From NCBI GenBank assembly GCA_008632985.1, contig QPGO01000294.1, forward strand, positions 1 through 64,000: a DNA stretch of 64,000 nucleotides. The letters are read 5' to 3'. The DNA comes from Psammoneis japonica (taxonomy: Eukaryota). The translations under genes were made by a program, and so were the position numbers. Positions 3,662 to 44,779 of the stretch are shown one piece after another. Each line of letters begins with the position of its first letter. Within the stretch, counting starts at the first letter, position 1. The notes under the pieces were generated by a model. It was not told the origin of the DNA, did not search any database, and saw only the letters and a list, made by a program, of their open reading frames with translations.

Positions 3662-3840
3662 TGAGTAAAAATCTGGATGGAGAGCTGTGCTGCAACTGGT
3701 GATTGGTTGACATGTGTGAGTCGAGTGGTGCTGCAGCGACCCGCTCACAATCTAATCAGGTTCAGGTTCGCATTGACAGTGTTGCTGCTTTCCATCAGAC
3801 GCAAGGTGTCGCACTTGTTCTTTCGTTGCATTGAGATTTG
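3662..3840 (+). repeat. 3' LTR of the copia element (~180 bp)
   Basis: Starts TGAGTAAAAATCTGGATGG just after a short purine-rich GCAGGGAC. Aligns with 34846-35012 and 54744-54919, which precede gag. Confidence 0.8.
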
Positions 3841-3989
3841 TTCGGTTGTTCAAATCTTCGTTGTGCAACGAACAGATTTCTTGCTTGCACCGTGCTCAGA
3901 TGAAAGGAAAGGAATTCGGAGTCTAAAATTTTAAAAATCAAAAACTCCCTCCGACGCGATCAAGAGGTCGCATGAGACGACGTGCGACC

Positions 3990-5303
3990 ATGATGGGAAT
4001 GAGAGAGTTTGACATCATTGTGTGCGGTGCAACAGGCTTCACGGGTGAGAAGGTTGCCAAGCACATCAAAGAATCCACTGAGCACAAACTAGCGATCTCT
4101 GGGCATTCTCGAGAAAAAGTTGGAGCAAGTCGCAACAGCGATTGGCCTCTCGCAAGACGCTGTCTTGGTGGCTCCAGTCGATGATCTGGATGCCCTGAAG
4201 GGTGCATTGGCAAAGGTTCGGGTTGTTCTTTCTTGTGCTGGACTGCATCGTCACGTTGGAATTGAAGTTGGCCATGCTGCAGTCGAAACCAAGATGGATT
4301 GCCTTGGTTTGCGTGGGGAACCGCAGTTCTTCTGTTGGTTCAGCACGATGGTGCTGCTCGTGCAGCTGATGCACTGATTGTGAGTGCACGCGCATTTGAT
4401 TGTGTTCCAGCAGAGCTCTCTGCTGCCTTTGCTGCAAGAGAGCTCAGTCGTTGCTTTTGTTCTGCGCCATTGACTGGAATCGAAATTGTTCATGCTTTTC
4501 ATGGTGTTGCGTGTGGAAACCCAACAACATTTCATGCAGCTGTCTGTGGCTTTCATGCTGCCATGAATGGCGAGCTCAAGCAAAGTCGTCAAGCTGTTGA
4601 AGAAAAATTCAAAGTGCAGAAACCACCTCCAAGACCAGAGGACTGGCCGAAGGCACCAGCAGCACCTGATGCCATCCCACAGCATCACGAAGCCACCAAC
4701 ACCTGCACTGTCAACTTCATGGGTGCAGATGCTGCAGCAATGTTGGCCTCCGACAGGTGCCTTCGTTTGCGGATTCCGTCCCAACATGCGGACACACCTC
4801 AACCTCGGCTAGCCATGAGCATTGGACAAAAGGAGAAATCACACGCACTGCAGCTGTTGGCATTTGGGTCTGCATTTTCGTTTCTAGCCAGATTTGGCTG
4901 GGGCTGCAAGGTTCTTCATGACCATCCAGAATCATTTTCGGGTGGTTTCTTCCGACAAGGGGGGCCAACAGAAGAGGAGCTTGCCAGCGCACACTTTTCA
5001 ACTTTCACTGCAGCACGCGGCAGGAGCGAAAAGGACTGTGTCACAGTCAAGCACCATGGACCAGAGCCGGGTTGCGCAGCAACTCCACAAATGATTGTCG
5101 CACTGGCAACAACTTTGCCAGAGCATCGTGACAAGCTTTCCTTCAAGGGCGGCATTGTGCCACCGGCAGCTTTGTTTGGTCAATGTGATGAAGTCTGCCG
5201 GCAGCTGAGGAAGCATGCTGTCAAGTTTGAGACTGCAGAGAGCTCGGCAGAACCTTCCGTCACAAGTGATGCCGCCAGGATTTGCTCGAATGCAGACATC
5301 TAG
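3990..5303 (+). pseudogene. Saccharopine dehydrogenase-like oxidoreductase (SCCPDH family) pseudogene
   Basis: Rossmann motif FDIIV[C]GATGFTG, plus VLSCAG, GEPQF, AFDCVPAEL and GPEPG[C]AATP, spread over three frames. Tyr positions are replaced by Cys/His. Confidence 0.85.
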
Positions 5304-8300
5304 CCTCAGTTCTACAGCCCTCATCTGCTCACCGCGTGCGATGAAACTTGCATCAGTTTCGCTCTCCGATGCCGATGTGCAACACTTTGTCACGAAAGCA
5401 AAGACACGTGCAATGCCAGCTGTTGACTGGACACAAGTTGATCATCAAGACGACAAGCTGAGAGAACCAGTCGTTTTTGCACCTGCACCAGTGGCCTGCC
5501 CCAAAACCGACGGAGCAGTTTGATGACTGAAAAAGGCAACGGTTTGGCTCTGCAGCAAATGAGTGTCACTGTTGAGGAGTCTTGGATGTTTGATTCGTGG
5601 GAACTTTTCACAAGCGTCGTCAGGAGGCGCAACGTGATTTGAAAGAATGCGAGAATCGACAATGTGCTTCTTCGAATCAGGCAGAGTCTGCGCAGAGCTG
5701 TTGCTGCTTGAGGTCATCAGATTCAAGCTGACCTGCATGAAAGGACAAAAGAAGGGTGTCTTTGAGGTTGCGGACCGTGGCGGATGGGTGGCGAGAGACG
5801 ACATTTAAGAAACATTCAGTTGCCTCCCTCAGCATGAGATTGATCTCACTCCATGCAGGGGGGCATGGCATTTGGACAATCCAAACATGCCGGTTTGTGC
5901 CGTCAAGAAATGTTCGCGTTGTGGTGCAAAAATGCTTGGGACAAAGAGATTTGGTCTGAAAATGAAGACAGTGGCAAGCGAAATTGACTTGCATGAATCT
6001 CACGAACAAGACTTGCCGCAGCGTCAGTCGTCGTCGCGGTGCTGTTTTCTTTGGTGGGGAATTTCAGCCACTGCCTCCCACAACACCTGCATCATTGCCT
6101 CCGTGTTCCCGTCTGCATCCGATGCACGTGTTGGGCTGCAAGGAAAACCCATTGAAAATGTCTTTGAGAGCAGTTGTTCCACAAGGCAACGGAACTCAAG
6201 CGACTCAATCACACCCATGCATCCAAAGTGGACAACACAACATTGCGGAATTCGATGAAGGCAAGGAAGATGTGAAGGAGTCGCTTCAAGATGCTGTTGC
6301 AAACACCAAGCAAGTCAAGAATGGAAGTGGTTTCAAAAGTTGGGAAAGCTTGAAGATGCACTTTGCATTGGCGCGAACTGACTTGTTGCTGCAGTGCTGT
6401 TCCACTGGACCTTTCCGCCTCCTTGGCAGCAGCACGCGATTTCTTTGTTGTTCGTGACACTCTCCACTGCAGGGCCACTGGAGCCAGCTCTAGCTGCTAG
6501 AGCAGAGGACAGAGCCACAACACTGCTTCTAACACCATCCACTCTAGAGAGATCGCCTTCAAGAGATTCGTGTTCTCAGCCCCAAAATGAAATGATCTCA
6601 TTGGGCAAACGACGTCCATGCGGCTCTCAAACTGACATCATCGCTGATGCATTTGCTTGAAGCACATGAACAAATGTGGAAGATTGACGGCCAAAGCTAA
6701 ACACATGACAGTGGAGAGGCATTGCATGTGGAGAGGCAACGACGGTCGCGCCTTCGTAGTGTTTTGGAACCTGGTGCATCGGATGGACTCTGTTGGGACT
6801 GACGCAGGTTCTTGTGGCAAACTTGAGCATTGCTGCGAATGCAAACCGATCACGCTACAGACGAGGAATGTGTGGGAGGCAAACTGCACTCATTGTCCTC
6901 TCTTGCTTTGGCATCAAAAGCTGTTCTCGACGTTGGAAATCTTGGTTTCTCTGTCACTTGAAGGGCACACAAGGTCAGAATGCGAGCGCTTGAAACTGAC
7001 AAAAGCAAATGCCATGTCTTGGAGAGCGCACTCGGGTCGACCATGTGAAATGTAAAACCACTGTTGCATGAATCTCGATGGCTCTTGAGGGGCTGTTTCA
7101 GCTGCCAGAGCAACTGTCAAGGCTTGGAGAGTCGCCTCGTCTGCAGGAGTGCCGCGAGAGAGATGTTTCTAATGGGGAACACGTCAAGCGCAACAACCGC
7201 CAACAGTCAGAGACACCTGCATCATAAAAACTTCGTCTCATGTTTGGATTTGATGAAAATTGGATGTCCGCATCATGTTCCGAGTGACTCGAATGAGAGA
7301 GGCTTGGAGGACTCGAGAAAAAACGCTTGTCGACCCGACTCGACACTTTGACATGTTGCAAACGACATGGGATGACCACAATGGCGAGCCTTGAGAATGC
7401 CACAGTCCTGTCATTGTCGCCAGCAATCGTAGATGGGACTGCAAGTGACATGTGGATTCCCCTTTTTGCATTTCTTCATTCATGTTCATCTGTCAAAAAA
7501 CAGAAATCAAAATCTGAAAAAGAGTGTGAGTTACAAAGTGTGACTCAGCGAGACGGTCACAATCGCAAACGCAACAAAACAGATCTTCAAACGCTGTGGG
7601 ACATGGAGAATGCAGCTGACATGACGGGCCGGCGACCCACAGGAGTGTCAAGCCTGTGGGGGTTCAGACATGAGATGCTCAATGAGCAACTCAAGCAGTC
7701 TGAACCACCTTACAACCTTCACAAAAAAGGCTGCCCTTCGGGGCATCAAGCACACCATCTTGGTCCACGACGTTGACAGGCGTTCAGCGTGAATTCAAAG
7801 AAAGAAAGCAGAGGCTGGCCCTCCTCTGACAGAGCCAGTGCATCGCAGTGCACTCGAAAGCACACTGGCTGGCTCTCACCACTGCCGCATTGGACATTTA
7901 CAAGCATTCAGCACACACGCAAGAAGCGAGTTTGCTGGCAATCGTGGTGTGTCTCCGTCGGAACCACGGACTGCTTTGACAGGCAATCGTCATTTCGCCT
8001 CGAACCGACTTCCAAAGATGTGCGCAATCAAATGCACAGAGGAAAACCATCAAGGACCCAAGCCTTCAGGTCCACATGGCAATCGTGTGCGGACGACATT
8101 CAATGACTCAACTCCAGCAGATCTAACTCGCAACGAGAACAAGACAATTGACTCGCCGTCGGCAGAGAACTGATGCAACCATGACAATCAAGAGAGCAAT
8201 GTGTTTCAAAAGGTCGAATGGCGTTTTTTGTGTGCTCCGTGCAACAATGAGGAAAGTGATTCAGATTTCACTTGTCCCGAGCCTTGACGCTTGACGTTTC

Positions 8301-8480
8301 GAATTTTTTTGAAATTGTGGCGGGAAAACCAACGGCTTCTTTTGCTGTCACATTTTGTGTGAAACTCATGCGAACACCGATGACGTCTGCCAAACGGAGA
8401 ATCTTTTGAGCTCCGAACTCCAAGATTTCCTTCCATCTGCCACATCCGCAGCACATGCCACATCAAGCATCACATTCATT

Positions 8481-8501
8481 TTGTTGTTGCAGTTGTTGTT
8501 G

Positions 8502-8553
<52 letters not shown>

Positions 8554-8566
8554 AGTTGCAGTTGCA
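8481..8566. repeat. (CTG/TTG)n trinucleotide microsatellite
   Basis: Directly visible; the paralog at 44704-44792 has a different CTG/TTG arrangement. Confidence 0.95.
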
Positions 8567-8699
8567 TTCGTCCTTGTCTGTTTTTCAATGACATTGAACC
8601 CAACACTCAACAGCATGACGACTGGAGCCCCCAAAGACAGCGGGCTGTCTCCAACAAAAGAAAAGGAGGAGGAAAATGATTCGCGAAGGCTTCCCCGCG

Positions 8700-9520
8700 T
8701 TGCTTCGTGCCGACGGCATGTGGTTTGGGTCCTCTGATTGAGGGTGCTGTCAGCAGCTGGTTGTCATTCGACCTCAGTTTGAGGGTGCCGCAGCTTTGAA
8801 CTGTGAGGATGATTGGGATTGGCGACACGGACAAGACCTGCAAGGCATTCTTGGAGCTTGCAGAATTGCCGCTCGGCATGCTGCGGGTTGGCCCCGACGC
8901 ATGGAGCCAGGCATTCACGCCGGACCAGGATGGCATTTCGAATGATCTCCTTTCCTTGTGCTGTCGACTCTGCCCGCAGTGTCACAAACGACAAAAATCT
9001 CATTCGCCTTGCCGCAGAAGCGTTGCTGCATTGTTTTGCCTTGTGCGCAGAGATTGGTGCTCCTGGGACACTTCCAGAAATTCTACGGGGGCATTTTCAA
9101 GTCAAGAGTGCACCGGACCGCTTTGCCCAGAAGGACCTTGTAACTGCAGGTTTCATCAAAATTGGACGCTTGAGCCATTCGCAGTGGTGGGCGGATGAAC
9201 GAGGACACCAGAGGCCAGTCGAGCTTCCCACTGTTCCACTGAAAAACATGGTTGAGGTGCTGACCAAGTGGGACACCCATGCAAGCAACCCCACAGTCAT
9301 TGATCAACGTGGTGAAAGCTTGCTCTTTGATGGATCTGATGAAACCCTTTGCGAGTGCCGTCACCGAAGCGTGTTGACCTGTTCCGAAACAATGTCTCGA
9401 CCACTGATGTTTCTGGCACCCTTCATTGGTGAAGAAACAGCGCTGAACCCACTCTGGTTGCTTGTGACCAAGGTGCAAAAAAGAACAAGCGAGGCCGAGG
9501 AACATTGGCAATGGCGCGGC
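8700..9520 (+). pseudogene. AhpC/TSA (peroxiredoxin-like, algal/cyanobacterial type) pseudogene
   Basis: Motifs IGIGD, CAEIGAPGTLPEILRG[H]F, G[H]QRPVEL..V.LKNMVEVLTKWDT[H], QRG..LLFD and MSRPL.FL; frameshifted. Boundaries approximate. Confidence 0.7.
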
Positions 9521-10129
9521 ATTGCACAAGCGTGGGTTAAAGTGAGTGCGTCGTTTTGCCAAATTTAGAATCTTGCGATCTCTGAACGCCAAGATTTCCT
9601 TCCCTCCGACACCACCACGCTTCACTGACAGAGCCTGCGACACTTCACATGCATGCCACATGATGCTGCCACATGCAACATCATGCTCAACAGTGACAAC
9701 AACAGGAACAAACAACGCAACAACAATGTCGTCGCTTCCAAGAGCAGAAGAAGCAATGCGGTGTGTTCGTACGACAAACAAACGCCACCACACAAATGAA
9801 GAGACAAGTCGAGTGCTGATGCTGCAGACTGTGTTCAGAAGTGGCAGCATTGACGATGAAGCCACCCTCGTTGACCTGAAGTCTTGACTGGACTCGACTC
9901 CGCTTGCTCTCGTGGTGGCTGTGACATCCTTTGGTGGACCCAGATGCAAATCTCTCCTCAACGATTTGCCTTTGCTCAAAAAGACTACGCCAGCGGTTCT
10001 GCTTGCTGTGGTTCTGCCCCGTCAAACCCCAAATTTTGATTTTACATGCCGATCGAATTGGGCTTGAATGAGATGCCGTGTCTGTCGCAAGCATTCGCGC
10101 CAATCTTCAAGAGATCAGCAGCAGTGATG

Positions 10130-10790
10130 GAGGGGGCTGCTGTCCCTTTTAGCACCAGCAACACCAAGAATCCTTCCGTGTGCTGTCCTGACAGTTCATT
10201 GGATCCCAATTCCTCTCCCACCAACCCCTTGGATGTGCTGCAATTGGTGCAACAATGGGCCACACGCTGAAACAAATCACCAAGGCGTCAACGGATTCCA
10301 ATTTGGGTCTGGGTTGCGGCTTGCGGCAATGCCACGAGCTTTGCCAGCCTGCTTGAGAATGAGGCAGTTCTCTGTTTGTGAAGTGGCGCTGGAGTCTGTT
10401 GCTTTTTGGCTGCCGACGTTGTGGGACCGTCCTGCACTTTCATTGAAGTGTCGACATGAAACCCCACATGTTTTACAAGTCACGAACTCACGCCAACAAG
10501 AAGAAGACGACCAATGTCGAATTCTGTTTGGGAGCGATGGAACACCTTCCCGCAGCCGACGGCCCGGTGGATTGTGCTGTGAGCAATTGCGTCATCGATC
10601 TCAATCCTGACAAGCCGCAGGTGTCTCGAGAAATGCACCACATTCTCAAACGGGGTGGTCGCATTGCCGTGTCAGACATCGTGATTCGCCCTGAAAAGAT
10701 CACACCCAACACCCCATTTTGCTTCAAGACGGCCAAAGCGATGACATGCATTCTCCCCGCAACTTGTGCGGACGAAGCCTTTCGATCCAT
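10130..10790 (+). pseudogene. Arsenite methyltransferase (ArsM/AS3MT-like) pseudogene
   Basis: SNLGLGCG near 10300, decayed SAM motif VLCL*SGAGVCCFLAA.VVGP, and NVEF.LG..EHLP.AD..VDC.VSNCVI.L.PDKPQV.RE...ILK.GGRIAVSDIV. Confidence 0.85.
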
Positions 10791-10859
10791 GTGGGCAGAG
10801 TTTGAATGGGAAATGAGGTGACCATTCCAACGTTGGTTCCCAACACTCGGCAGCTCGTG

Positions 10860-11560
10860 ATGACGATGATGCCAACACCACTTCTTGTTGAACCACTCGC
10901 ATGCGCGAGAGATCTGCGGCCACGTGCCTCGAAAGCCAGAGGTTACCTCAACGACACCATCATCGGTGAATTTTTCCTTTTGCTGTCCCTGTGGGCAAAG
11001 AAGCACCATTTGGAGCTTCCCAAGCAATGCCACTTTGTCAGCTCATGCTTTTTGCCAACACTTGTGCAGGATGGGCGCGTCAAGAATGGCAATGTTTGTT
11101 GTCAACTGAAGAAGTCACCGGGCAAGGGGGTGTTCGAATGCGACCGCCTGTTGGTGCCGATCAACAAGAGCAATGTCCACTGGGCTCTGTTGGTTGTCGA
11201 TTTCGAAGCTCACGTAATCGCAGGGTGTGATTCATGCGGAAATCCATGAAAGTCGTACGCCAAGAAGCTGTTGGAGTTCGTCGAGCAGGAACATCGTTTC
11301 CAATGCAACAACGAGAGCCTTCCGTCCGACTGGTCCATTGTCGAGAGTTGTCACATCCCCAAGCAGGCTAACGGATTTGATTGCGGTGTGTTCGTCAGCA
11401 TGTGTGCCTGCTGTTTGTCCTTGGGATGTGATGTCCTCGAAGGACACTTTGACCAGGACAAGATTCTGGGTCCATCCGGGGACTTCGGCCGTGCCAAGAT
11501 TTGTTCTGCCATCCTTCAGGGGCAGGTGGAGCAAAGGGTTTTTATGCAGTCCATGCAATG
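10860..11560 (+). pseudogene. Ulp1/SENP (C48) peptidase pseudogene
   Basis: YLNDTII, LLVPINKSNVHWALLVVD, [C]DS and IPKQANGFDCGVF give the His-Asp-Cys triad; frameshift near 11250. Confidence 0.88.
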
Positions 11561-12794
11561 CAGCAGAATTTTCCTTGGTCATGCGCATCTTGTGATCAAA
11601 TTTTCTTTTGCGTGTGCAGATTGATGGCATGAGAAAACAGACCAGGCGATGAACACGCCAACAAAGTGCCCATCTTGAAATGGATCTGCTTCTTGCCGGA
11701 GCCAGTCACCATGAGGCGACGAGATGCTTGACAAGAAAGTGCTCCATCTCTTTTCGGATTCAAGCTGCGCTTTCATCCTGCCTCCAAGTGCTTGGCAAGC
11801 TGCAGCTGTGTTTGCTGCCACACCTCCCTGTTCAGCGTTTTCAATCAAAAGAAAAAAGAGAGGAGGGCCAGTTCGTGGCAGTGAATGCCAGCCAGCAGAG
11901 AGAGGTGCTGCTCTGCCAATCTGGAATTCGGCTCGCCCGCATGTCATTTGCGACATGAGCACCTCCAATGAAGAACGGCAATCCATGTTGTCCATCCAAC
12001 TCACAGTGGCAACCACCAAGGAAGAGACTGGTGCAAGGCAAACAGGGATGACACCGTGCTTGATTGCGCCATTGGGGGTGCTGGTCTTTGCAATTGAGTT
12101 GTGGCGTCTCGATTTTCTCGGGCGGGACACAGGGCGTTCCTCTTGGATGCAGGCACTGATTCCAGATTGTGATTGCAGCACAACGCGAGTCTCAGTTGTT
12201 TGGCCAATGTCGACGGAAGATGTTGAGATTTGGCGGCACTTTGCTTTTTCCAATTCCAACGCAGTCCTGTGCCCTCTAGCGACTGCTGTTGGAGGGCATG
12301 CTTGTTGCTGCGGGCAGCAACAACAGGTTGGCCGAGTGTGGTCAACCGTCAACAGGAATCTCCATGGGACGGTGTCGCCAGCAACCGGGACACTTGCGCC
12401 AATGGCACCCACAGCATGTGTGGATGCAAACTCTGGTGGATGCAAACGACTCGTTGGAAATCATTTTGGCTCTTGGGAAACAAAGCCGCACATCTCGCAT
12501 CCACAGCATCTCGTTGCCATCGGCGCTCAAGTCGTGTCGATCGTCACAGTCGTCACATTGGTGCGGGTGTTCTTTCTGCCAACACGGCATCATTGCGTCG
12601 CTTCTTGGACCGTGCAGTGCCGCAGGACATTCGATCAGAACATCCAACGACGACACCATGCAATGCACATCAACACATGAAATGTCGTTGTTGCTGCAAG
12701 TGAAGCAGAAATCATTCAGCATCTAGCACAACTTGCCGACTGCAGTGTGCTTGCCGATCATTCTTCTTTCTTCTGCGTTGTCAATTTGAAGTTG

Positions 12795-14840
12795 TCAGCA
12801 GACGCGATCTTTTCTTTGATTTTTGCTCGCAACAAAAATGACACGGGATTTTGCCGTGTAAAAAGAGCAAACAATGGATGTGCAGACAGACGATCCTTGA
12901 ATTTTGCTCGCAGCAAAACCAACACGGGCTTTTGCCGTGTAAAAAAGAGTGAACAATGGATGCACAGACAGACGATCCTCGAATTTTGCTCGCCAGCCAC
13001 TGCGTGAAAGAGGGGCCCATGAAGCCGCAGGCCCCAAGCACAACCGCTTTCCTTCAGTCCACTTGTTCACAACACCAAAAAAATTCTCTGCTCCATTTCC
13101 ATCTGACAGCCATGCAATGCGATCAATGTTGGACTTGTTCACTCTCTTCGTGATGACTTTTGTGAGAATTTTTCTTCCTTTGTTGGACACCTTCATCGTC
13201 GCTCCATGAAACCGAGCCTGTTTTTGACAGAGCTCACAAACCAGCTTGTCAAAATCACCTTTTGCAAGCGGCGTGGCATTTTCCAGTTCTAGCTGCACGC
13301 GAACACGTCGCTCCGCCTGGAGGCACTTGCAGTTTCGCAAATCACACAATCTGTGGTCTCCACAGTGGTGAGGAACAATTGCATCGAAGCCACGCAAGCA
13401 TCTGTCTCTTGCCTTGTCTTGCTGGTGCTTGAATGAAAACAGCAAGAGAAGTCTCTTCCACTTCTGCTTCACAGTCTCTCATGCACCTTTGCTGTGCCTG
13501 ACATGTTGCCACCGATTCTCATTAATCAAAAGAACGTGATGACAAAGGGACATGCGTCGAGAACAATCCGACACAATGGCCTCCATCCGTGGAGTCGAAA
13601 GACCCTTTTTGAACTCAGGGTTTTTTGATGCCAAAGTGAAAAAGCCGCTTTTCACCGTTTTTGTCATGTGCCCGCCATCAGGAAGCTGCTGTGAAAATCC
13701 CTCTGCCGTGTCTCCAACTATGTCGCGTTGCTCTTTGACAAATGCAACAATGCTTCGTGTGTCTCCGTCTGAGGTTATCTCACGAGGAAAAATGGCTAAG
13801 TCATCTGACCTGAAGTTGCCATCATCGTCCAACAGAAGCTCTCTTGCAAGTGCAATGTTAGCATGCTCTTCTGCCACCCCGGGGCCATACTTCGAGTTCC
13901 TAGAACACGAGCCTTCATGCGAGAAATCAATCTCGCCGGGAAGAATGTCGCCGTATCGTTTTTCAGGATGCTTTTCAAGGTAAGCGGTAACAACGCGGGA
14001 ACAAAGAGCACAACTAATTTGGTCTACAATTACAGCAAGTGGCTTGCCAGTCACTAAGCTAATGCAGACCAAGCAATGAAGCACGCCTTTCACTCGATGA
14101 CAGATCCACCGCATCGGTCCACCACCGTCGTTGTTTATCGGCCCCATTGCAAAGTTGTGATGCTTGCCATCTCGATCAGTAAATTGAAAATCACCCTCAT
14201 AATGTCTCTGCTTCCTGCTCTCTTCCACATGCTCTCTACGATTCTGAAGTAGTTGCTCCTTTGCCACAGGCAGCCCAACCTTCTTAATGCGTTTGAATTG
14301 CTCGTCGATTGCAGATTTGGGAGGGCACACCCCACCGAACCCCGCATAAAGCTCCTGCAGCTTTTCTCTTGAGACACCAGCATCAATGGAAGCCAATGCA
14401 ACAACAATTATATCTTCTGACACAAGTTGGCCTGATGGTTGCTGCACTTGTTCCGCCGGCCATCGCACCATTTCCTTCCGACAATACGAACAACGCCAAA
14501 CTTCTTTCAAGCCGAACGACAGGGTACTTCTAGCCACCAAGATTGCATCATGACCGCATTTTTGATTGTGATTAAAGACATCTTTCACCCACTCATCATC
14601 CATTTTGATGCTAGACTTCTTGTAGCCGGTCATGTTGTTACATGGGTCTGACGGATAATTTTCTTTGTTGTGGTCGTCGTCGGTGCTGGATCCGATTCTT
14701 CCGCTGTTGTGAGGAGTTGCAGCACAATTGTCACCCTTCTCTATGTCATGATTCAATCTAGAGCTTTTGCTCTTGGATGCATTATCTTCCACCTTAGAAC
14801 TCTTCTTGTCCGCAGTGCGAGTGTAACCGGCATTCTCCAA
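12795..14840 (-). mobile_element. Kolobok-like (Pfam 'Mutator-like') DDE transposase, interrupted by one in-frame TGA
   Basis: Motif order C..C, NDGGG, TGKPL...SCALC, H...C.RN, SDGDT, DGGH..K, HH.GDH..C and NGAENF. ORFs 13479-14840 and 12795-13472 are in the same frame. The true 3' end is probably near 13000. Confidence 0.7.
12821..12995. repeat. ~81-82-bp tandem repeat (about 2.1 copies) at the 3' end of the transposase; possibly subterminal repeats
   Basis: TTTTGCTCGC units start at 12821, 12902 and 12984; paralog at ~49044-49215. Confidence 0.85.
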
Positions 14841-15486
14841 TGCATTGTGTGCCTCTTGAAACAGTGTCTTATTCCGAATGAAGTAGTTTGGCCCAATCCT
14901 TGGAATGGTGACAAATGCATTATGCTGTTCTTTGTAACATTTGAAGCCATTTGCTTGAGGGCCACACTTATAGTAAGTATGATGAGCGCCGTTGTTGTTG
15001 AATCGGTCCCGTTCTACAGTGCGGCATCACGAGTCCCACGCATTGCATTCGTCACATCACAAAGAGGCAGTGATGGATAGCCACCACGCTTCAGAATTGC
15101 ATGTGTCATTGAGTTGTCCATCCAATATCCCTTGATGTTGGATGGAAGGTGGAGGAGCACTGTTGACACAGCGCCGCAAACGCCATTGTGATTCGTACTC
15201 ATTCTGAGATTTTTATGGCTTCTGGTAATCGTGGTATGCTCGTGTAGATTCCCACGAATTCCCCTCCGCGTAGCGTCAGTACAATTTTCTACGGAGTATA
15301 TCCGGGTTGCAGGTCCATTCGGAACCTTAAGCTGACGCACTTCAACTACTGTATAGTTCCTACGCACTTCTAAAACAGCACTTCTGGTCTAATCAAAATC
15401 TTTTCAGCCCTTTGGTTGTTGCAACTACTAGACTAGTTTCAATCAAATCACAGCTTAGTCGGCAAAAACGGCTAGCTATCAACGCA

Positions 15487-17604
15487 ATGGCGGAACAAGA
15501 TAGCTCGATGGATAAGAAAATCGTTGAAGGGTTTTGCCTATTATGGGAATTCAAATCCAACGGGAAGGTCAAACTCCAGAATGATCGGAATTTTCTGGAA
15601 GGAATCCTAGTTCGTGACAAAAGTGCTAGTACCAATAGCCAAAGAGACGAGAACCCCGACGCAAACCTCTTAGATTCCTATTCTCAGTTCCGACAGAGAA
15701 GGGCAAGAAGCTTGTTCGGTGAAATAGGTGAATTATTCGTTCATTACACCCTGTACTTGCCGCTCGCTTTGAGGGGCGAAGATCGCGACAGGGACATTGA
15801 AAAGATCAACTCAAGTCTCCGGACACAATTGTTCCACTTCTCTGCCTTTCGTTTCGGTTACGAACTTGGGAGTGGCAAGTTGGGATATGGAACGGGTAAA
15901 GTGCAGCTCGATACTGCAATCATGCGGCTTCATACGGTTATTCTGGTCCTCAATGGTACAGTCTTCCACATTTTGTTGATCACCCTTATTTGGGGCCTCA
16001 ACATCTACCATATCGTGCATTGGAAAGAATTTACGGATGCGTACAGGGTTACGAGTTCTGTGTTGCTAACACTCTTATATCTCTTTAGGCTCTTCGTGGT
16101 GCGACCGTTTCTTATTCAGCATAGCGCCTCTCAGCAATTCTTCTTCACGTTTAACGTCTGGACAATTTTGGGGCAACAGTGGTGCAAAATATATCATTCA
16201 AAACGTAAAGTCGTGCAAAATCCTATTCGAGTTAGTAAGCCGGTTTCTATCGCGGAAGCTGATGCATGGACACCCTACGAACAATTAACACCAAAGGATC
16301 CGAATCACTCCCACTGCATCTTTGTGTCGCATCGATGGAAGACGCCATCCAATCCTGATCCCGATGGAAGCGAACGTCGAGAACTATCCAAATATTGCAA
16401 AAATGTGCAATGTTTCCTCGACTACTTGATCGATCCAACTGCCGTCAACTACTGGGAGGGAAACAAGGACAATATCATTCCTGATATTTTCATTCGGATG
16501 CTGAGACGCTACCATCGATTCTGGTGCCTTTCTGATGACCATTTGCATCGCATGATATTTCATGTGTCTGGGCTAAATAATGAGCCTTATGCTGCAGCGA
16601 GCTTTTTTGCTCGACGTCAAAAGGAGGTACTGGTATGGTATGACTACCAGTCGGTTCCACAAGGGAGGGACGACCAATCACGCGAGATTCGTTCCAAATG
16701 TTTGGACGAGATTGAGTTCATTTGCCAGGAAATGACGATGCACATTGAGGGAAGTGTGGACTATCAGACGAGGGGCTGGTGTCTCTTCGAGATGTTGCAT
16801 GGAGTGATGGGGGATGTATCTAGATTGGAGGAAAGCAATTTGCTTCCTGGATTTCACGGTCACTTGTTTTTTCTTGCGATGCGGGTCTACATTAATCTCT
16901 GCGAGAGCCTCGAGAAGGAGGATCCCGAGAACTCCTCCGTAGTCCCCGACGTGGCCAACTTGTTACGAGAAATGAACATAGAATGCACCAATGGATCGGA
17001 CCTCGAGTTTCTCGCTGGACGTTTAACACGTCAAATCATTGTTCAGGGGCCGGCAAGAAAAGCGTACGAATTCGTAATTCACCCTCTACACACGGCCCGG
17101 ATGTTGTTTCGAATGGTAATTTTTTCTTCATGGCAAGATGGAAGTGTTGAACGCCCGAAGCTTGAAGCTGATTTCAATCGAATAGTGTGGCATTTCATGG
17201 GAAAATATGAGATGCCCCTAATTGGTGACGAGGAGTGGTCCGCTGGTATCCCATTTTATTCGACGCTTCGGAAGATGTCCCGGAGGTCGTTGCACATTGT
17301 GGACCGGGGCACAACGGTATATTTGAAATTTAACTATCCTGCTCAAGTTTTGTCTCACTACGTACAAACGAAACACGAAGATTTTTCTATTCCGGGATAC
17401 AGCGAGCAGGTACTTACGCTTTTAAACATCTTCAGGCGGATTAAGGAGTCGATGGGTTTGGAAACCCTAACCAAAACTTGGTGGCAACAGATAAAGAGGG
17501 GAGATGGCGAGGACTTAGATCAATTTCTGTCCAACATGTCATCGACGTGCTACTTATTGCGGGTCCAAGTTGGAATGCCCGATGATCGTGGTTTCACAGA
17601 ATAA
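15487..17604 (+). CDS. Intact ~705-aa protein with two predicted N-proximal TM helices and a HET-like (TIR-related) domain
   Basis: Uninterrupted ORF with normal Tyr use (about 27 Tyr). Hydrophobic segments HTVILVLNGTVFHILLITLIWGL and VLLTLLYLFRLFVV. Motifs FVSHRW....PDPDG, VWYDYQSVPQ, YQTRGWCLFE and CTNGSD. First ATG at 15487. Confidence 0.8.
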   Translation: MAEQDSSMDKKIVEGFCLLWEFKSNGKVKLQNDRNFLEGILVRDKSASTNSQRDENPDANLLDSYSQFRQRRARSLFGEIGELFVHYTLYLPLALRGEDRDRDIEKINSSLRTQLFHFSAFRFGYELGSGKLGYGTGKVQLDTAIMRLHTVILVLNGTVFHILLITLIWGLNIYHIVHWKEFTDAYRVTSSVLLTLLYLFRLFVVRPFLIQHSASQQFFFTFNVWTILGQQWCKIYHSKRKVVQNPIRVSKPVSIAEADAWTPYEQLTPKDPNHSHCIFVSHRWKTPSNPDPDGSERRELSKYCKNVQCFLDYLIDPTAVNYWEGNKDNIIPDIFIRMLRRYHRFWCLSDDHLHRMIFHVSGLNNEPYAAASFFARRQKEVLVWYDYQSVPQGRDDQSREIRSKCLDEIEFICQEMTMHIEGSVDYQTRGWCLFEMLHGVMGDVSRLEESNLLPGFHGHLFFLAMRVYINLCESLEKEDPENSSVVPDVANLLREMNIECTNGSDLEFLAGRLTRQIIVQGPARKAYEFVIHPLHTARMLFRMVIFSSWQDGSVERPKLEADFNRIVWHFMGKYEMPLIGDEEWSAGIPFYSTLRKMSRRSLHIVDRGTTVYLKFNYPAQVLSHYVQTKHEDFSIPGYSEQVLTLLNIFRRIKESMGLETLTKTWWQQIKRGDGEDLDQFLSNMSSTCYLLRVQVGMPDDRGFTE

Positions 17605-18797
17605 TAGTAGAACTTCATATCAATATGACTTCTCTGAAATTCGACTGAAAGATAAGAAAATGAGTTTTGTTCGCCTGCTAACTGTAACGACACGTGCTTA
17701 CAGAGGAGCCCATTCTCATTTCGCGAAGAGAAGATTACAGTCTTGAGGGGTCTACTGTTCGGGGTCCGCGCTTGGGATCGACTCCCAGCTGCGCGTCCGT
17801 CCGCCCCCACGAGTTGTCATCGCCCCTCTCGCTAGCCATCGATCTATCCCTAGCAGCTGGAAGACCAGCAATGGTCACAACAAACAGCCGTTTCGATTTC
17901 GTACGACCGAAGTCCCTCTCAATCATTTGTCACAACCGTTCGTCCATACATTTGCATGGTTTATACGATATCCACATAATTCGTTTGCATGCAGCACAAG
18001 AATTCTTCATTCATTCAGAGTGTCTCAAGCATTGTCAGCTCCTTGTCAAAATTGAGCAATGTGTTCCCCTCTGTCAACACCAATTTACAAGTAGAGTTGA
18101 CTCTCTCTGCGTAACTCTCCGCATTCAAGGCACCAATTTGAGCACATGATGAGCTAGCCACAAGGGGTAAAAATCCAAACTTCTTTTTGTTTCTCATCAC
18201 CTCCCAAGTCCCAACTGCATTCAGTGGTTGCTGCCCCACAATGCACAATCGATTTGCATTTTGCTGTCTCCACAGTGCCACGTGCTACAAGGTTTGCCAT
18301 GCAGTTAAGCATTTGTGGCACAGCCAACATCTGCAGCACCCTCAAAAATGTCACGATGCCACCTCGCCAGAGCATCCACCCACACATTCAATCCAGCTGG
18401 GAGAGAGAGAGACAAGCATGGCACAACAACCGATCCTGGTGACCTTTGATCCCCTGAAAAAACACTGTCATCATGCACAGCAAGAATGCCAAAAACCAAG
18501 ACAAAAGTGGAATTGCAAGCATCATGCTTGACATGGTGTGCACTGCTCCTGCAACCTCAAGAACCTGGCATTGCCGTGTGGCACAGTTGCATTGACAGGC
18601 ACTTTTGTTGCACCATGTTCAAGAAAGGGGTTGCTGCCAATTGAATGCAAAATCACATTGGTGAACCTCATCTTCTTGTCAAAGGGAAGGGGTTGCAGCC
18701 AACCACCTGTGAGTGTTGACCGTGAACCACATCTTCCAAAATTCACAGCTTGGGCAAACTCAACTTGCCAAAACTCGGATTGGTTTTTCCAGCAACC

Positions 18798-19090
18798 TGA
18801 CAGCTCCCAGCAAGAACCCAACAGCTCCCCATCATGCAACAGCTCCCAGCATCCCAATGGCTTCTCAGAGCAGTGCATCGACAGCTCCTGGTGGCCCAAC
18901 AGCTCCTGGCGGTGTGACAGTTCCCACCAGCCCAATGGCTCGGGCTCAGGGCTGTGCGATGACAACTCCCAGCGAACCCGCAGTCCTGCCAGTGCAATGG
19001 CTCCCAGCAACTCAATGGCTCAGAGCAGCACAACAACAGGAGCTCCCGGCAATGAAACAGCTCCTGGCAGCACGAGGACAGCTCCATCAG
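18798..19090. repeat. Imperfect short-period tandem repeat with ACAGCTCC core
   Basis: Recurrent ACAGCTCCC/ACAGCTCCTGG at irregular spacing of roughly 20-40 bp. Confidence 0.7.
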
Positions 19091-19869
19091 TGCAACCAAC
19101 AGTGCTTGGAAACTTGAAACGACTCTCTCTTCCGTGACCCATGAATCAGGAGGCACTTGCTTTGCAGCTCCACTCATGGTGGTTGACAGGCTCGATGCCA
19201 AGAGGGCATGAGCAGCAAGACATGACTGAGGAGATCTTGCATCAGCAAAATTTGGTGTCACGGATTGGATGGATGGAGTTGAGCTGGCAGCTGACTTGCT
19301 GGAGCTGGTCTTTGGAGCAAGAGAGGAGACAATGGCACCAAAAAAATGGCCATCCAACATTCTTCACAGCTGAAACAAGCTTCCCTGGTGACAACAATGA
19401 TGAAACAAGAGCCTCAGGAGGTGGAAGCAGTGGGACAACATGATGCTTCTTGGAGCGCTGATGCCTGTTTGGGCGAGAATGGGCACGTGGGACACGTTGG
19501 GTGTTGTGATTTGGCCCTTTCCCCTCCCTTTTCCTGGGAGGAGATGACTTGGACACACAGCAATTTTTGGAACAGCAGGGTTAGATGCATTTTTGTGAGA
19601 ACAGACAGACAACATTGCAGTGTAAGATGCTCTGATGAGAGCAATTTACGTGGCAGTTTGCGCTCATCACTTCCAATGAACAGTGGGTTTCGTTCCCACT
19701 TTTTAGCTTCTGCACCCAGTCAACATGTTGGCAGCAGTAAAATGGCACCTGGAGCGTGTTTGTAAGCCATTCGGTGAGTTGAGTTTGCTGAGACTAGTTG
19801 GTTTATCCACAGTGCTGGTGAGACCAGTCAGTTTGGGCATGAAGCTCCAACACAGAAACTAAAAAGTCC

Positions 19870-20820
19870 TGGCACAATGCTCGAAGGAGTGGTGCCAGTG
19901 TGAGGGCCGGGAGGTTGATGGGAATCCAAATGAGGGCCGGGAGGTCGACAGGAATCCAAGTGAGGGCCAAGCTGAAACAAGAGCTGGGAAGTTGACAGGA
20001 ATCTGAAACAAAGGTGCGGTTTAGACTGCAACGTTTTCGTGTTGCTCTGGTGAGATTGGTTGAAGACACCAGTCGGTTTGGCCATGGGCAAAGATGCAGT
20101 TGAGCATGGAAACACGAAGGAATTGAAAGAGTGGGCATGTGATGCCATTGCTGAGTCAGGCTGACAAGCAGATGGTTGCACAGAAGCCACAAAGAAGATC
20201 AGTGAGTGCGTTGGCAGAGTGTTCGGGCCAGAGATGCAAGTGTTGGCATCCTTGAGGCAAGAGAGCAGACCAGAAGAGCCTGAGCATCCAGCTGGGCAGG
20301 ATGCGTCAGAGAAGGGTGAGGCAATCTGGGGGAAGCAGCACAATCACCACATGAAACAGGATGCAATCTACAAGACACAGAAGGTGAAGGTGTTCAATGT
20401 TGTCATGGGCCAGTGCACCAAGGCCGTTCATCACAAACTTGAAGGAGTGACAGGGTTTGCAAAGATCATGAAGGAGTGGGATGTGGTGGCACTGTTGGAC
20501 ATCCTCAAGTCAGTGCTGTTTGACACTTGTGAGAAGGTTCACTCACACATCCAAATGGCCAGTGCTTGGAAGCAGTTGGCACTCATCTGACAGGATGAAG
20601 GGGAGACACTCCGAGATCATTTCAATCGGTTCGCGAGTGCAGTCGAGATGGTGGAAAGGTCCTGCGGAAGGATTGTCCCAGAAGAAATCACCAGAAGACA
20701 AGATGGACTCAGCTCAGATGCTGATGACACACGATCAAGAGAGAGAGAGAGAGGCAAACTGTTGGCGGTGATGCCAATGGAAGGTGCCAGTGGATGCTGG
20801 CAAGTCTTGGAGGACCTGCA
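19870..20820 (+). mobile_element. Degenerate gag-like fragment of a second copia family
   Basis: ATKKISE[C]VGRVFG.EM and KVFNVVMGQCTKAV.HKLEG..GF.KI....DVVALLDILK resemble diatom copia Gag; stops present. Confidence 0.55.
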
Positions 20821-20968
20821 GCCTGGTGCATTGTCTGCTCTTCGCTCGGCCACGAGTTGCACATGCTGCGAGTTGTGCAGAAGAACTGCTCATTGCCAAT
20901 TGCGAAAACAGATCATCGCCATCATGGAATCACTTCATCGATGCCACGAAAGAAAAACAACGACGATG

Positions 20969-21364
20969 GACGCGTTCCAGCCCTGGGTGGGAGCTCGTAG
21001 CACTGACGTGTGACACAAATAATTTTTGTCATCCGTCGCATGTTTCGCATGCAGCTTTCTACGTGGGACATTTAAAAAAAATTGTCCAGACTCGCTGTTT
21101 TGCGAAGCCCCAGACGTTTTACATGACGAATTTATAGAAACAACAATGCGCCAGTTGCATTCTTCAATGTCTGAATGATGTAACTGGCTAAGTAAAAAAT
21201 GATGTACTTCAATCATGGGCGAGTTTGTGCGTTCGCAAAATTTTCTCATTTTCTGTTTGCGATCATTGACATTTTAATTGCCGTTTGATTTTAGTGCGGA
21301 GCTCGCACGTAGAAGTCCACGAGCCCAATGTCACACGGATTCCCACCTACGTCTGAAACGCATC
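20969..21364 (+). mobile_element. MITE family A, copy 1 (396 bp)
   Basis: Termini GACGCGTTCCAG...CTGAAACGCATC; 4-bp TSD GATG; empty site in the paralog near 49395. Confidence 0.92.
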
Positions 21365-22997
21365 GATGTTCCATCTCAAAGGCATGCTTTGGGAATGCCA
21401 TCAGCACACACGTCGCAATGAACAACAGAAAAGAAAAGCGCAGTGAGTCAGCAATGCAGTCAGCCAGCATGCATCGGAACGAACCACAGAAAAAACAATG
21501 CAGAGGTGGAGAGCACATTGATTGGTTGTTGCTCACGACGCATAACGATGTTCCACTGCTGCGCAGAACCCAACATTTGCCCTGCTCTTTTTCCCCCGAT
21601 TTGGTCATCTTCCGGGAAGACAGATGCCAGGATTTTGCCGGTGCCCTGATTTCCATCGCAAGGAAGTGCAGCGGTGCCTGGGACTTCTTGATGACTGCAT
21701 CATCAGAATGATCATGTTCAACGTGCAGTCGAGTCAGTCTCTGGCAACCGTTGCCGATTGGAGCATTTGATCTAAACTGCGACACAACAGAGGAAACAAT
21801 CAACCTTGTTTTGATCACTCTTTTGGAAACATTGCGGATGTCACTTTTCCTGTGTTTTAAGACAGCGGTCGTTTCAAGGAGCACCGCGTGGTGTCTTGTT
21901 TCAGTCCCCAAAGGCGGCAGCTCCACTGGGTCGGCGGTTGAGCATGCAAGCCAGGAAATGCATCCCCGGCAGTGGGAAGAGCAGTGGAATCCGTCAAAGA
22001 GAGACAGCACAGCTTTAGAATCGTCCAACAAAACACCTCTGGCGGGCGAATTCAGCCAAAAGGTCACGAAAAGCTCTGCCGGCATGCACTGTGCGACAGC
22101 TCATGGTGTTAAAAAGGAGGCAACCAAGACGTCCTTGACCTCTTGGAGAAGCCTGTTGGCTGCTCTGCTGCTGGTGCCACCAGCACCAGATGACTTTACA
22201 ACACGAAACATGACAAAAGTCGTCACCTTGTGCGCGTCACCATTTCCAGCACAATGAAATCCAAAGTGGCATCATTTGGAACAAAGAGTGGAGTCGAGTT
22301 GTTGTTGGCTTGATTCCAATTTGTGCGCCCAATGGATGCACCGTAACTGATGCTTCAACTCTGCTAGAGTCAGTGTCGTGCTGCTGCTGCTTGGGAACCA
22401 CCGCGATCCTAGAATGACACAAATTCCAACACCGAGTGAGGTGGTTGCACCCAATGGTTGTTGCGTGTTTTTGTTGCGCACTGCTGTGGCACACAACACA
22501 AAATTGGCAACAACAGCAGAATCTTCAATGGAGAACAACCAGATTTTTCTTTTGGCAATTGCACGACAAACTTTTTCGGCTGCTGCACTGTAGATCCCTG
22601 CTGCCGGCAGTCGGATGGAGACAGGCAGTTTGGCGACCAAACGGCATTTTGTGCCAGTGGTGCACTGCACAACATCTGTTTGCCCTCATCCATTTTAAGC
22701 TGCGATTTCATCACCAACTAGATCAAGAACGTCACCGCACCACTGCCATTCCTTCAGTGAATTTGGATGCAAGACATGAGACATGAGCATGTGCTGTTGC
22801 TGCAATTTGCTCTAGCTGTGCAGAGGGCATCGTGATCGTTCGAAAGGATGGCAGCGCACCCCACCATCAAAGTTGCGTTCACCATTGTTGAAACGTTCAA
22901 TGAACGATTTCACCTTGGCATGCTTTTCTGCGTTTGTCAGCATTGAATTTGCCTGCGTGTTTTCAATGCCAGGCTCCCCGCAGAAACACTGACCACC

Positions 22998-24718
22998 ATG
23001 GCGTCGTCTTCCGCCGCTGCTGGCAGCAATGCCGCCAATGCAAACAAAGACACCACTGCCGCTGATGACATCACTGTCGATCTAGCATCCCTTGAACCTT
23101 CATCCAAACTGAAAGAACGACAGTTTGAAGAGATTGCTGTCCATTTTGACATGCGTGGCCCAGAAGCGACTTGCAAGCCAATGGCCCTCGTCACTTCCCA
23201 TCTCCAAATTCTCAGTCAGATCCTTTTCACTTTTCACATCGAAGTTCAGATTCTGGACAACTGCAACACCAGAATTGCACACGTGAACGTTGCCGAATGG
23301 GCATCGACTCTCCAACACGAACATCATTTTCAGATTTCTGCGACTCGGAGCGGTGAGAATCGTCCGGTCACACACCGTTTGTGTCATCGTCTCCTTGCGA
23401 AAGTCCCCCTTTGCGACATTCGCTCTCATCCCAATGTTCAAAGCATTTTGGAGACAAACAATGCCGGTTTAAAACGTCATCATTGGAGTGAGTCCATCAT
23501 CAACATGGCTGGCCCGGCATGTTTTGTTGCCACTTCTTCCAAACATGCTCCCATCGACTCTGCAACCAAGTTGTTCCTCAAAGATCTTGGGGATTTAAAA
23601 ACCAAGATGCCGAAGTTCCGCCTTGCCCCCACTTCAGTCCGAGCAGACAACAACAAAACATCCGTCCCCATCCACGCCGTGACCTTTTCTGTTTGAAGTC
23701 CAACAAGATGATTGCTGCACTGCGGCGAAAACCCTGTTGTGTGCTTCCGAAAAGCTTCCGACTCATGTCCTCATGGCAAAAACTCGACACCTGTCTCCAC
23801 TCGCCTTTTACAATGCGGTTAAAACACAAGCCCAACGAAACAACAACACCTTTGTGGCGCCGTTGTTGCGTGCTTCTGTGGGTGTGATGTTCTTTTTTGG
23901 AAAACCACATCAAAGTGATTGAAGGTGTGATTGACATTTTTCCCTCCCCCAACGTGTCATCTGCCGGGCGTCACAATGTTCTGGTCAAACGAAATCATTT
24001 CAAAAAGGCTCAAACTGAGATTTCCACGTGCATTTTGAATGAGATCCCAAATGTTCCGAAAGATTCCCACCCGTCTCCTCCATTTGACGATCTCCATCAG
24101 GTGCCTGGTGTTTTTGACGAAGCTTCTGATGCTGGTGAATCCATCATGTTGGCTGGCATCCGCAGCTTGGAGTCACTCACTTTCTCCGACGTGTCTCCCT
24201 TGACCAACCAAGAAGCTCCTCGACTTGACCGACTTCCCACCCCTTCGTCTGGCAGAGGTCATGGTCGGTCCGCCATTCCCGGTCGCGGCGACTCAGCAGC
24301 ACGTCCCATTCCTCCTCAGACATTCACAAACCCACCATCTTTCCAAACTCCAAACTTCGGTCTAACTGGATGTCCCGGTGTCACGTCTCCGCAAGCGTCT
24401 TATGCCCAAATCGCTCAATCCTCATCGAGTTCTTCGATTGCTTCCGTTCAGTTTGCCGAGGTCCAGCGCACTGTGACCCAAATGCAAACCCGTCATGAAA
24501 AGGCCATTCGTGATCTGCGTGACAAGCACACACACGAACTGCAAACTGTGCAATCGCAACATGCAGCGAAACTGTCAGGCATGCAAGACCAGATGAATGA
24601 GGTCATTCAGTTGCTCCAAGCGTCTCAATCCGCTTCTTCAGAGAGTCCTGCGAGGAAACGGCAAAACCAAAATCAGACTCCCGATTGCAGTGACGATGGA
24701 AAAGACTCGGATTTTTAG
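22998..24718 (+). pseudogene. LINE ORF1 (frameshifted), with C-terminal coiled-coil-like region
   Basis: Consecutive ORFs 22998-23696, ~23700-23890 and 23897-24718 directly upstream of ORF2. Confidence 0.7.
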
Positions 24719-24726
24719 CACGGAGA

Positions 24727-44703: not shown

Positions 44704-44732
44704 TTGTTGTTGCAGTTGTTGTTGCTGTTGCT

Positions 44733-44779
<47 letters not shown>

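Follow-up and report, generated by a model that had tools for sequence, protein, structure and literature searches.

Mutation confined to the dinucleotide TpA has been described in Bigelowiella natans, where an integrated nucleocytoplasmic large DNA virus (NCLDV) and a virophage are hypermutated from A:T to G:C at TpA only (Mettrop et al., bioRxiv 10.64898/2026.01.13.699255). As far as the main text of that preprint goes, 230 of 231 single-nucleotide mutations in two regions were A>G or T>C at TpA, the rate was about 1000 times background, TpA-poor coding sequences were enriched for DDE and reverse-transcriptase domains, and the NCLDV insert was single copy and transcriptionally silent, with a Rho of 0.45 (the virophage region is not depleted); the authors propose a DNA adenine deaminase resembling ADAT2 as the agent (Mettrop et al., bioRxiv 10.64898/2026.01.13.699255). 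In the full-text literature this preprint, the supplements of which may hold lists of contexts or of transposons, was the only report of TpA-directed hypermutation found. Here we consider a 64-kb stretch of DNA from Psammoneis japonica (contig QPGO01000294.1 of assembly GCA_008632985.1, positions 1 to 64,000; this whole stretch is called the window below), in which TpA has been converted to CpA or TpG almost to completion throughout a tandem array of transposon relics, except in an island of about 4.5 kb that holds a 705-codon open reading frame (ORF).

Over the whole window the observed/expected ratio (o/e) for TpA is 0.13 (501 sites), with CpA at 1.55, TpG at 1.57, CpG at 0.68 and the remaining 12 dinucleotides between 0.82 and 1.26. 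The values for AA, AC, AG, AT, GA and TT (0.91-1.26) indicate that the depletion is restricted to TpA dinucleotides. TpA o/e is at most 0.25 in 60 of the 64 1-kb intervals, and the only four above that value lie together in 14001-18000 (0.49, 0.67, 0.61 and 0.66). An earlier note on this DNA, made from the sequence alone, had placed a spared island at about 13.7-18.2 kb, and a check at 200-bp resolution bears this out: TpA comes back at 13719 and is found up to 18168, beyond which there are just two sites (18286 and 18306) before the next at 19582, and the span 13719-18170 holds 187 of them. The note's other descriptive claims also proved accurate. Tyrosine codons return, there being 27 Tyr in the 705-aa ORF (15487-17604) against 0-1 in Copia and long interspersed nuclear element (LINE) frames of 299-741 aa, and spurious reading frames become sparse, only three stop-to-stop frames of at least 110 aa overlapping the 3-kb core of the island, against 208 in the 64 kb (3.3 per kb). 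Finally, the island does lie within a segment that is missing from the second copy of the surrounding repeat, the limits of the segment being 13034-20817 and the junction letters GCAGGCC/TGGTGC being present. As self-comparison shows the window to be a tandem array of composite units of about 19 kb (numbered I to III below), the segment can be set out as follows, strand being given for reading frames only:

13034-20817: segment present in unit I alone, containing the island (from self-BLAST, and from empty sites in contigs of other copies)
13027-13033: left copy of a 7-bp direct repeat (the right copy, 20818-20823, is one base short; unit II has one copy, 49248-49254)
13034-13718: left end of the segment, fully TpA-depleted and multi-copy (2 TpA, o/e 0.04)
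13719-15200: partly depleted zone (48 TpA, o/e 0.47, CA/TG 1.43/1.39)
15201-18170: fully spared core (o/e 0.65; its sole cover is an exact contig, 15302-19617)
18171-20817: right part, poor in both TpA and CpG (13 TpA, o/e 0.08; CpG 0.29)
13482-15026, minus strand: 515-codon open frame with a weak Mutator-like transposase match and 13 Tyr, its last ~80 codons lying in the depleted part
15487-17604, plus strand: predicted intact gene of 705 aa, with a TAA stop and a TAG directly after it

The core is unremarkable in composition, its 140 TpA sites being accompanied by CA/TG values of 1.13/1.01, a CpG o/e of 1.02 and a GC content of 0.46, against 0.50-0.51 in the flanks; before losing about 40 TpA per kb, the flanks would have had the same GC content as the core. 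The edges are sharp: the right boundary of the spared DNA falls within about 120 bp (18.17-18.29 kb), and the left one (13.72 kb) is inside the Mutator-like open frame. A 4.5-kb stretch with normal TpA amid 60 kb of depleted transposon relics means that conversion was locally aimed, and did not arise from general composition; within the one window examined the depletion is thus local, and the island is supported as a valid internal control. Nor can the sparing be put down to selection on the encoded protein, an alternative that the earlier note had raised, because the non-coding DNA of the core is as normal in TpA (o/e 0.75 in 15027-15486, and 0.60 in 17605-18170) as the ORF itself (0.61).

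In which direction did the sequence change? Four Copia frames in the window, each with 0-1 Tyr and open for 299-741 codons, are informative:

406-1302: Copia frame
1310-2587: Copia frame
39676-41898: Copia frame
59569-61611: Copia frame

These frames stay open over such lengths because TAA and TAG have been erased. At columns where Tyr is conserved in at least 80% of 17 Copia homologues, the four copies have Cys or His in 8/8, 11/11, 15/19 and 12/14 cells (46 of 52 altogether, with a single Tyr left), and in the same copies the conserved Phe and Trp columns have been kept in 8/10, 15/19, 25/29 and 14/18 cells; the catalytic motif of the reverse transcriptase is CVDD in one pair of copies and HVDD in the other pair. 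Since conserved Tyr has become Cys or His, TAY must have been turned into TGY or CAY, and the depletion is mutational, consisting of transitions from A:T to G:C that strike TpA on one strand or the other (TpA to CpA or TpG). Among 120 listed Copia homologues the median Tyr content is 3.8%, and just one protein (P0061) has less than 1.2%. P0061, a public Copia protein of 684 aa in ENA, has two Tyr, 5.3% His and 2.5% Cys, with Cys replacing the Tyr of the reverse-transcriptase motif, and so shows the same footprint, whether from the same or from another organism. The closest named Copia relatives among the matches listed are diatom elements (51-52% identity), which suggests that the window may come from a second lineage, distinct from the chlorarachniophytes; the best unnamed matches listed reach 66%, and no named B. 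natans protein occurs among the 120 Copia matches listed. A metagenome scan with a Copia frame gave one locus (48% identity, TpA o/e 0.85), which was uninformative.

The array around the island gives the process a relative chronology. Unit II extends from about 38.3 to 57.4 kb and unit III from 57.4 kb onward, as far as the window reaches, while unit I, comprising the first 38 kb, is longer because it has four extra pieces: 3290-5664, 13034-20817, a miniature inverted-repeat transposable element (MITE) at 20969-21363, and 22921-31329. The units contain a Copia reverse transcriptase, a LINE-type endonuclease frame, an Ulp1-protease frame, and captured fragments of methyltransferase and coatomer genes. 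Three features are needed for what follows:

5665-13033: unit I's host repeat (94.7% identity to 41880-49254; TpA o/e 0.08)
41880-49254: unit II's host repeat; the empty site is at its right end (self-BLAST and sequence reading)
20969-21363: 395-bp MITE, not in unit II, with terminal inverted repeats of ~25 nt and a flanking repeat of 4-5 bp

By self-BLAST, 5665-13033 matches 41880-49254 and 20818-20968 matches 49248-49398, so that unit II is without 13034-20817. Copies lacking the segment are also represented by three contigs (summed depth 160) that join 13030 to 20821 and by one that joins 13033 to 21367. The 7-bp flanking repeat is either a target-site duplication or the microhomology of a deletion.

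Between units I and II (5665-13033 compared with 41880-49254) there are 386 differences over 7362 aligned bases. At as many as 87 dinucleotides one unit has CA where its counterpart has TG, and no further class of double difference has more than eight members; 22 sites are TA in one and CA or TG in the other, 129 are CG versus CA or TG, and about 61 differences are of other kinds, TpA-derived changes making up 196 of the 386. With 290 CpG kept in both units and 129 in one, CpG decay is estimated to account for only about seven of the 87 CA/TG doubles, and the others therefore presuppose a TpA in the ancestor, mutated on one strand in one unit and on the opposite strand in its duplicate. CA/TG was the top class of double difference in all eight of the copy pairs compared, and in a three-copy family 55 columns have only CA and TG, against seven with CG and one with TA as the third state. 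From these alignments, the conversion appears to have acted in place on DNA both before and after unit duplication, the CA/TG doubles being what establishes its action afterwards. As a rough estimate, some 83% of the TpA present at duplication would have been converted while other sites diverged by about 0.8%, which would put the rate at a few hundred times background. When the discordant CA/TG sites of seven pairs were put to a runs test, no one-strand processive tracts were revealed (P 0.19-1.0), and hits therefore look independent and strand-symmetric.

The process also has a sequence preference. Surviving TpA outside 13.7-18.2 kb is mostly in TTAA, CTAA, GTAA and CTAG, with none in ATAT or ATAC (0/239-283), and, with the core as reference, survival is 0.02 for ATA/TAT, 0.09 for GTA/TAC, 0.13 for CTA/TAG and 0.22 for TTA/TAA (context in core versus depleted DNA, Fisher p 7e-16). 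These values imply an order of susceptibility by 3' neighbour of TAT > TAC > TAG > TAA. In the zone 13719-15200 no shift of context was detected (an A-TA/TA-T side was present at 20 of its 48 TpA and at 63 of the core's 140; p 0.74), in a test too weak to place the zone midway.

A second compositional class occupies 31330-35000, 51250-54900 and 18171-20700, where TpA and CpG have both been lost (CpG o/e 0.04-0.3, CA+TG up to 2.0), and suggests a separate and heavier decay of the 5-methylcytosine type on some elements. Outside this class, TpA is gone while CpG o/e is 0.7-0.9.

Turning to the contents of the island, the 705-aa protein has 43 homologues at E<=1e-3 (nine of them at E<=1e-30), which are 33-39% identical to it along most of the sequence. 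It keeps every one of the 40 columns that are invariant in the alignment of the family (F.SHRW..HPDP, WYDY.S.PQG and RGWC.FE among them), and has Tyr in six of the eight columns where at least five of nine homologues have Tyr. Judged by this sequence conservation, the ORF is a real, intact gene, belonging to a conserved but unnamed eukaryotic (protist) family. The protein and its relatives gave no match to a Pfam family, a PHROG or a PDB sequence, and Foldseek found nothing at E<=0.001 with a model of the whole protein (mean pLDDT 62.6). With a domain model (pLDDT 74.2), the best VIA-align Z was 5.4, and TIR and nucleoside deoxyribosyltransferase chains scored 3.8-4.5 over residues ~34-230 of that model, which is below the level of trust; the Pfam HET family matches one of 18 members of the 705-aa family (E 0.19), and Atlas rows named HET or TIR are under the score threshold. 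A HET or TIR likeness would thus be a weak, sub-threshold lead. Among viral contigs there were 22 pattern matches to this gene, none of which was confirmed as a relative.

The Mutator-like frame to its left matches Pfam PF20700 at E 1.8e-5 (24.4-24.8 bits, under the cut-off of 26.5), and a word search with this frame and with a 730-aa frame found no homologue of either. A Mutator-like element is marked by its transposase domain, by terminal inverted repeats that are long, and by a target duplication of 9-11 bp; no terminal inverted repeats of the 7.8-kb segment were present among the 55 inverted pairs listed, and the repeat at its flanks measures 7 bp. Nothing elsewhere in the window resembles the segment at E<=1e-3; its only similarities are internal, between repeats of ~80 bp at 18.8-19.07 kb.

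Some further observations on the locus may be recorded here. In the host repeat, 10447-11246 (plus strand) holds an Ulp1 (C48) protease frame along with pieces of two other genes, namely a methyltransferase of class I (E 1.7e-16) and a coatomer beta appendage (26 residues); together the three suggest that a DNA transposon has captured genes. A tandem repeat of 82 bp (12816-12993, 2.2 copies) stops 40 bp before the insertion site, and degenerate repeats of ~60-80 bp occupy 18817-19080, within the TpA-free part that is covered by a single contig. Unit II contains a single N (49737) and a 200-N scaffold gap (56321-56520), so that the array structure there depends on scaffolding. Searches for tRNA genes and Rfam families in the window found none. 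In run X2, which is from the same sample and consists of 30 Mb in 64k contigs (of a kind not on record), exact contigs cover 14008-15198 (depth 32.5) and 15758-17340 (depth 6.2); if X2 is RNA, both ORFs of the island would be expressed, but this is only a hint. X2 contigs are absent from 12.7-13.8 and 18.1-20.2 kb, a gap to which no weight is given here.

Copy number was approximated from the contigs of another run, X1, at >=80% likeness; this run may be the source of the assembly itself, records may have been filtered out of it, and summed contig depth is not true copy number. On this measure an exact contig of 4316 bp (15302-19617, depth 31.2) is the sole cover of 15.4-19.15 kb, and the exact contigs adjoining it have depths of 30-36. 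Over 13.0-15.4 kb the depths sum to 185-288, and over 19.15-20.75 kb they sum to 100-500. The Mutator-like frame has a summed depth ~6-9 times that of a single contig, its other copies being ~82-84% alike (90 differences in 567 bases and 62 in 354, in two contigs), and the multi-copy DNA at 13.8-15.4 kb keeps a TpA o/e of 0.45-0.71. By comparison, 18.08-19.15 kb, which like the core is covered by one contig (continuing to 19.6 kb), has 0-7 TpA per 534 bp. The spared core looks single-copy, and the TpA-free DNA at 18.3-19.6 kb likewise. At the other extreme, the MITE has a summed depth of 20,000-40,000 against ~31 for unique DNA, i.e. 700-1300 times single-contig depth. The copy at 20969-21363 is the younger of two, having been inserted after unit duplication, and has 15 TpA (o/e 0.49); the older copy (29610-30006) has six (o/e 0.22) and reads CA or TG at sites that are TA in the younger, and the differences between them are mostly of this TA versus CA/TG kind.

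These results bear on the more interpretative part of the earlier note. Its use of the island as a built-in control holds good insofar as the depletion is local and the core is covered by one exact contig with nothing else at >=80%, but the notion that the mutator tracks repetitiveness, which the note offered alongside silenced chromatin, runs counter to the TpA-free state of the single-contig DNA at 18.3-19.6 kb and to the TpA retained by so abundant an element as the MITE. In the same way 18.2-20.8 kb, which the note had expected to be repeated elsewhere on account of its poverty in TpA, is indeed TpA-poor (o/e 0.08) and multi-copy from 19.15 to 20.75 kb, but is covered by one contig from 18.08 to ~19.6 kb, so that about half of the stretch looks single-copy and is nevertheless depleted, which for that half is the outcome the note itself had set down as refuting its reading.

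How, then, did the island escape? We favour, with a probability of roughly 0.55, the view that the process targets silenced repeat DNA and needs residence time to take effect, the core being unsilenced and probably late to arrive; among the cues and alternatives raised in the earlier note, silenced chromatin and recent insertion are preferred over strict repeat induction. An array of nested transposon relics (Copia, LINE, Mutator-like and MITE) has been exposed to an in-place process turning TpA into CpA or TpG, which ran before as well as after unit duplication and is now near saturation. The island is the part not reached, its core apparently a single-copy stretch with an intact gene in a segment peculiar to unit I. 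The targeting cue would be the chromatin state of silenced DNA, and the most likely candidate for the agent would be a DNA adenine deaminase, possibly a relative of the tRNA-A34 deaminase, which would fit the 5' T because A34 of tRNA directly follows U33. A DNA adenine deaminase is also the preprint's own proposal.

The core is taken to be unsilenced because its CpG is undecayed (o/e 1.02, most repeats having 0.74-0.80 and 18.2-20.8 kb having 0.29) and because exact X2 contigs fall on both ORFs. The 129 CpG sites at which the unit copies differ belong to the same probable footprint of silencing. Targeting of silenced DNA is preferred because single-contig DNA beside the core is fully depleted, because pieces that are multi-copy or of very high copy number are just partly depleted, because the core alone is without CpG decay, and because the process in B. 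natans, as the preprint's main text describes it, hits a single-copy and transcriptionally silent insert. Late arrival is suggested by the absence of the segment from unit II and from at least four other contig forms.

Several points weigh against this interpretation. Some TpA-free 1-kb intervals have a CpG o/e of 0.87-0.93, so that the link between CpG decay and TpA decay can be no more than loose. The spared core coincides exactly with the DNA covered by one contig, which a process triggered by homology would also predict, and the summed depths used here are no true copy numbers. Two other pieces specific to unit I, 3290-5664 and 22921-31329, are fully depleted (TpA o/e 0.08 and 0.10), so that a piece missing from unit II is not necessarily spared. 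The mosaic within the 7.8-kb segment may predate its arrival here, and the 7-bp repeat would be explained equally by an insertion and by an old deletion within the other copies.

Among the alternatives is a homology-triggered process to which the repeat-induced point mutation (RIP) known from fungi would be the mirror image: duplicated DNA would be mutated at TpA, the unique core would be spared, and depleted single-copy DNA would reflect leakage or lost copies. We consider it unlikely, despite the coincidence of the spared core with the only one-contig stretch and the independent conversion of the units after duplication. Short or diverged repeats are poor substrates for RIP, which would accommodate the partial depletion of the Mutator-like part (in view of the divergence of its other copies) and that of the MITE, which is only 395 bp long. 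Such a process does not readily explain why 18.3-19.6 kb, for which no other contig is >=80% alike, is TpA-free, this DNA being up to 1.3 kb away from the nearest multi-copy DNA; nor why 13034-13718 and 13719-15400, with similar summed depth, have TpA o/e values as different as 0.04 and 0.47. Across 30 bins, moreover, depth and TpA o/e are only weakly correlated (Spearman rho -0.29, p 0.12), and the hypermutated NCLDV insert of B. natans is given in the preprint's main text as single copy.

We are equally doubtful of an explanation purely by timing, in which the locus would have been uniformly exposed and the core would be simply its youngest DNA, imported in a mosaic whose old parts had been depleted elsewhere, and destined to decay in its turn. 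The sharp boundary at 18.17-18.29 kb inside one exact contig, and a left boundary inside an open frame, are awkward for this idea, and no source copy of the segment was found among the contigs at >=80% likeness. It would account well for the segment being missing from unit II and other copies, for the 7-bp flanking repeat, for the undecayed state of both CpG and TpA in the core, and for the higher TpA content of the MITE that unit II lacks (15 sites, against six in the older copy); but if ~83% of TpA was converted at ~0.8% divergence elsewhere, as estimated above, the core would have to be very young.

A route through RNA, with ADAR-like A-to-I editing of double-stranded transposon transcripts that were then retrotransposed into DNA, and an island that never passed through RNA, has far less to commend it. 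Copia and LINE relics do make up the bulk of the window, and a 5' U/T before the edited A is an ADAR preference (one that the Discussion of the preprint also mentions). Nevertheless, the changes arose independently in DNA-level duplicates (units I-III), including spacers, the MITE, and Mutator-like and Ulp1-bearing relics. G is the best 3' neighbour for ADAR, and the order TAT > TAC > TAG > TAA is different. Because DNA duplicates, the MITE and DNA-transposon relics were changed in place, and the order of 3' neighbours differs, RNA editing is strongly disfavoured.

Least credible of all are selection on the protein and artefact (the island as an assembly chimera or contaminant), since, for all that the island holds an intact conserved gene, its non-coding DNA is equally normal in TpA, and independently built exact contigs with 0 differences (13586-14315, 15302-19617 and 20360-20881; depth 31-36, like that of other unique pieces, though they may share the assembly's reads) bridge both internal boundaries and the right junction.

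As a more speculative extension, we tentatively suggest that the window records a TpA-specific 'reverse RIP' defence in a second algal lineage with no relation to the chlorarachniophytes; the defence might follow a heritable mark or state of silenced DNA, not copy number, and might use a recruited adenine deaminase of the tRNA-A34 type, to which the order TAT > TAC > TAG > TAA would point. If so, arrays would be driven to the complete loss of TpA, Tyr codons and TAA/TAG stops, and the island would mark the edge of a targeted domain at a resolution of ~100 bp. In the one report of TpA-directed hypermutation so far, as represented by its main text, the targets are viral inserts, extended context is not given and the guide is left open. 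To that picture the window adds an end state on transposons, in which catalytic Tyr has become Cys or His, nearly all TAA and TAG have been erased and false frames are open; action persisting after DNA-level duplication; a 3'-neighbour preference; and sharp boundaries between hit and unhit DNA on one molecule, at which cues such as copy number, methylation, chromatin and transcription are testable. There is a practical side too, in that gene finders over-call ORFs in TpA-depleted DNA, and homology searches miss its proteins.

How does the locus compare with known systems? Like ADAR hyper-editing and the action of APOBEC, it shows hypermutation of a deaminase type, directed at mobile elements and with a fixed 5' neighbour, but those enzymes act on RNA or on reverse-transcription intermediates, whereas here DNA duplicates and DNA transposons have been changed in place; instead of the passage through RNA and the 3' G expected of ADAR, we find changes made in DNA and a 3' order of T>C>G>A. 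With the decay of 5-methylcytosine at CpG, which is itself present in the window, it shares a symmetric dinucleotide target, CpA and TpG as products, and an effect on repeats; the dinucleotide and the base are different, however, and the loss of TpA reaches intervals with near-normal CpG. The resemblance to RIP lies in relics riddled with transitions at one dinucleotide, in mutation after duplication, and in the sparing of unique DNA beside repeats. RIP, though, makes TpA from CpA and leaves AT-rich relics, whereas here TpA is destroyed and GC rises: in place of C>T at CpA with an excess of TpA, the window has TpA at 0.13, CpA and TpG at 1.55-1.57, and relics that are richer in GC. As for the dependence on duplication that is characteristic of RIP, the indications in the window are mixed and partly contradict it.

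It is the B. natans system, so far as the main text of the preprint describes it, that comes closest. The substitutions are the same (TpA>TpG and TpA>CpA), action is local, the long-term footprint is one of low TpA with high CpA+TpG, the targets are foreign or mobile, and there too the process is not tied to copy number, the NCLDV insert being single copy. The differences are largely of stage and of target: mutations were measured in real time in B. natans, and a fossil footprint is seen here; depletion is nearly saturated over ~60 kb in the window (o/e 0.04-0.10), compared with a Rho of 0.45 for the NCLDV insert; viral inserts are affected there, and a tandem array of transposon relics here; and an order of 3' neighbours can be read from the window, while the preprint's main text contains neither 'context' nor 'trinucleotide'. 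On balance the locus is best classed as TpA-targeted hypermutation of the B. natans type, and is possibly the first example from outside the chlorarachniophytes.

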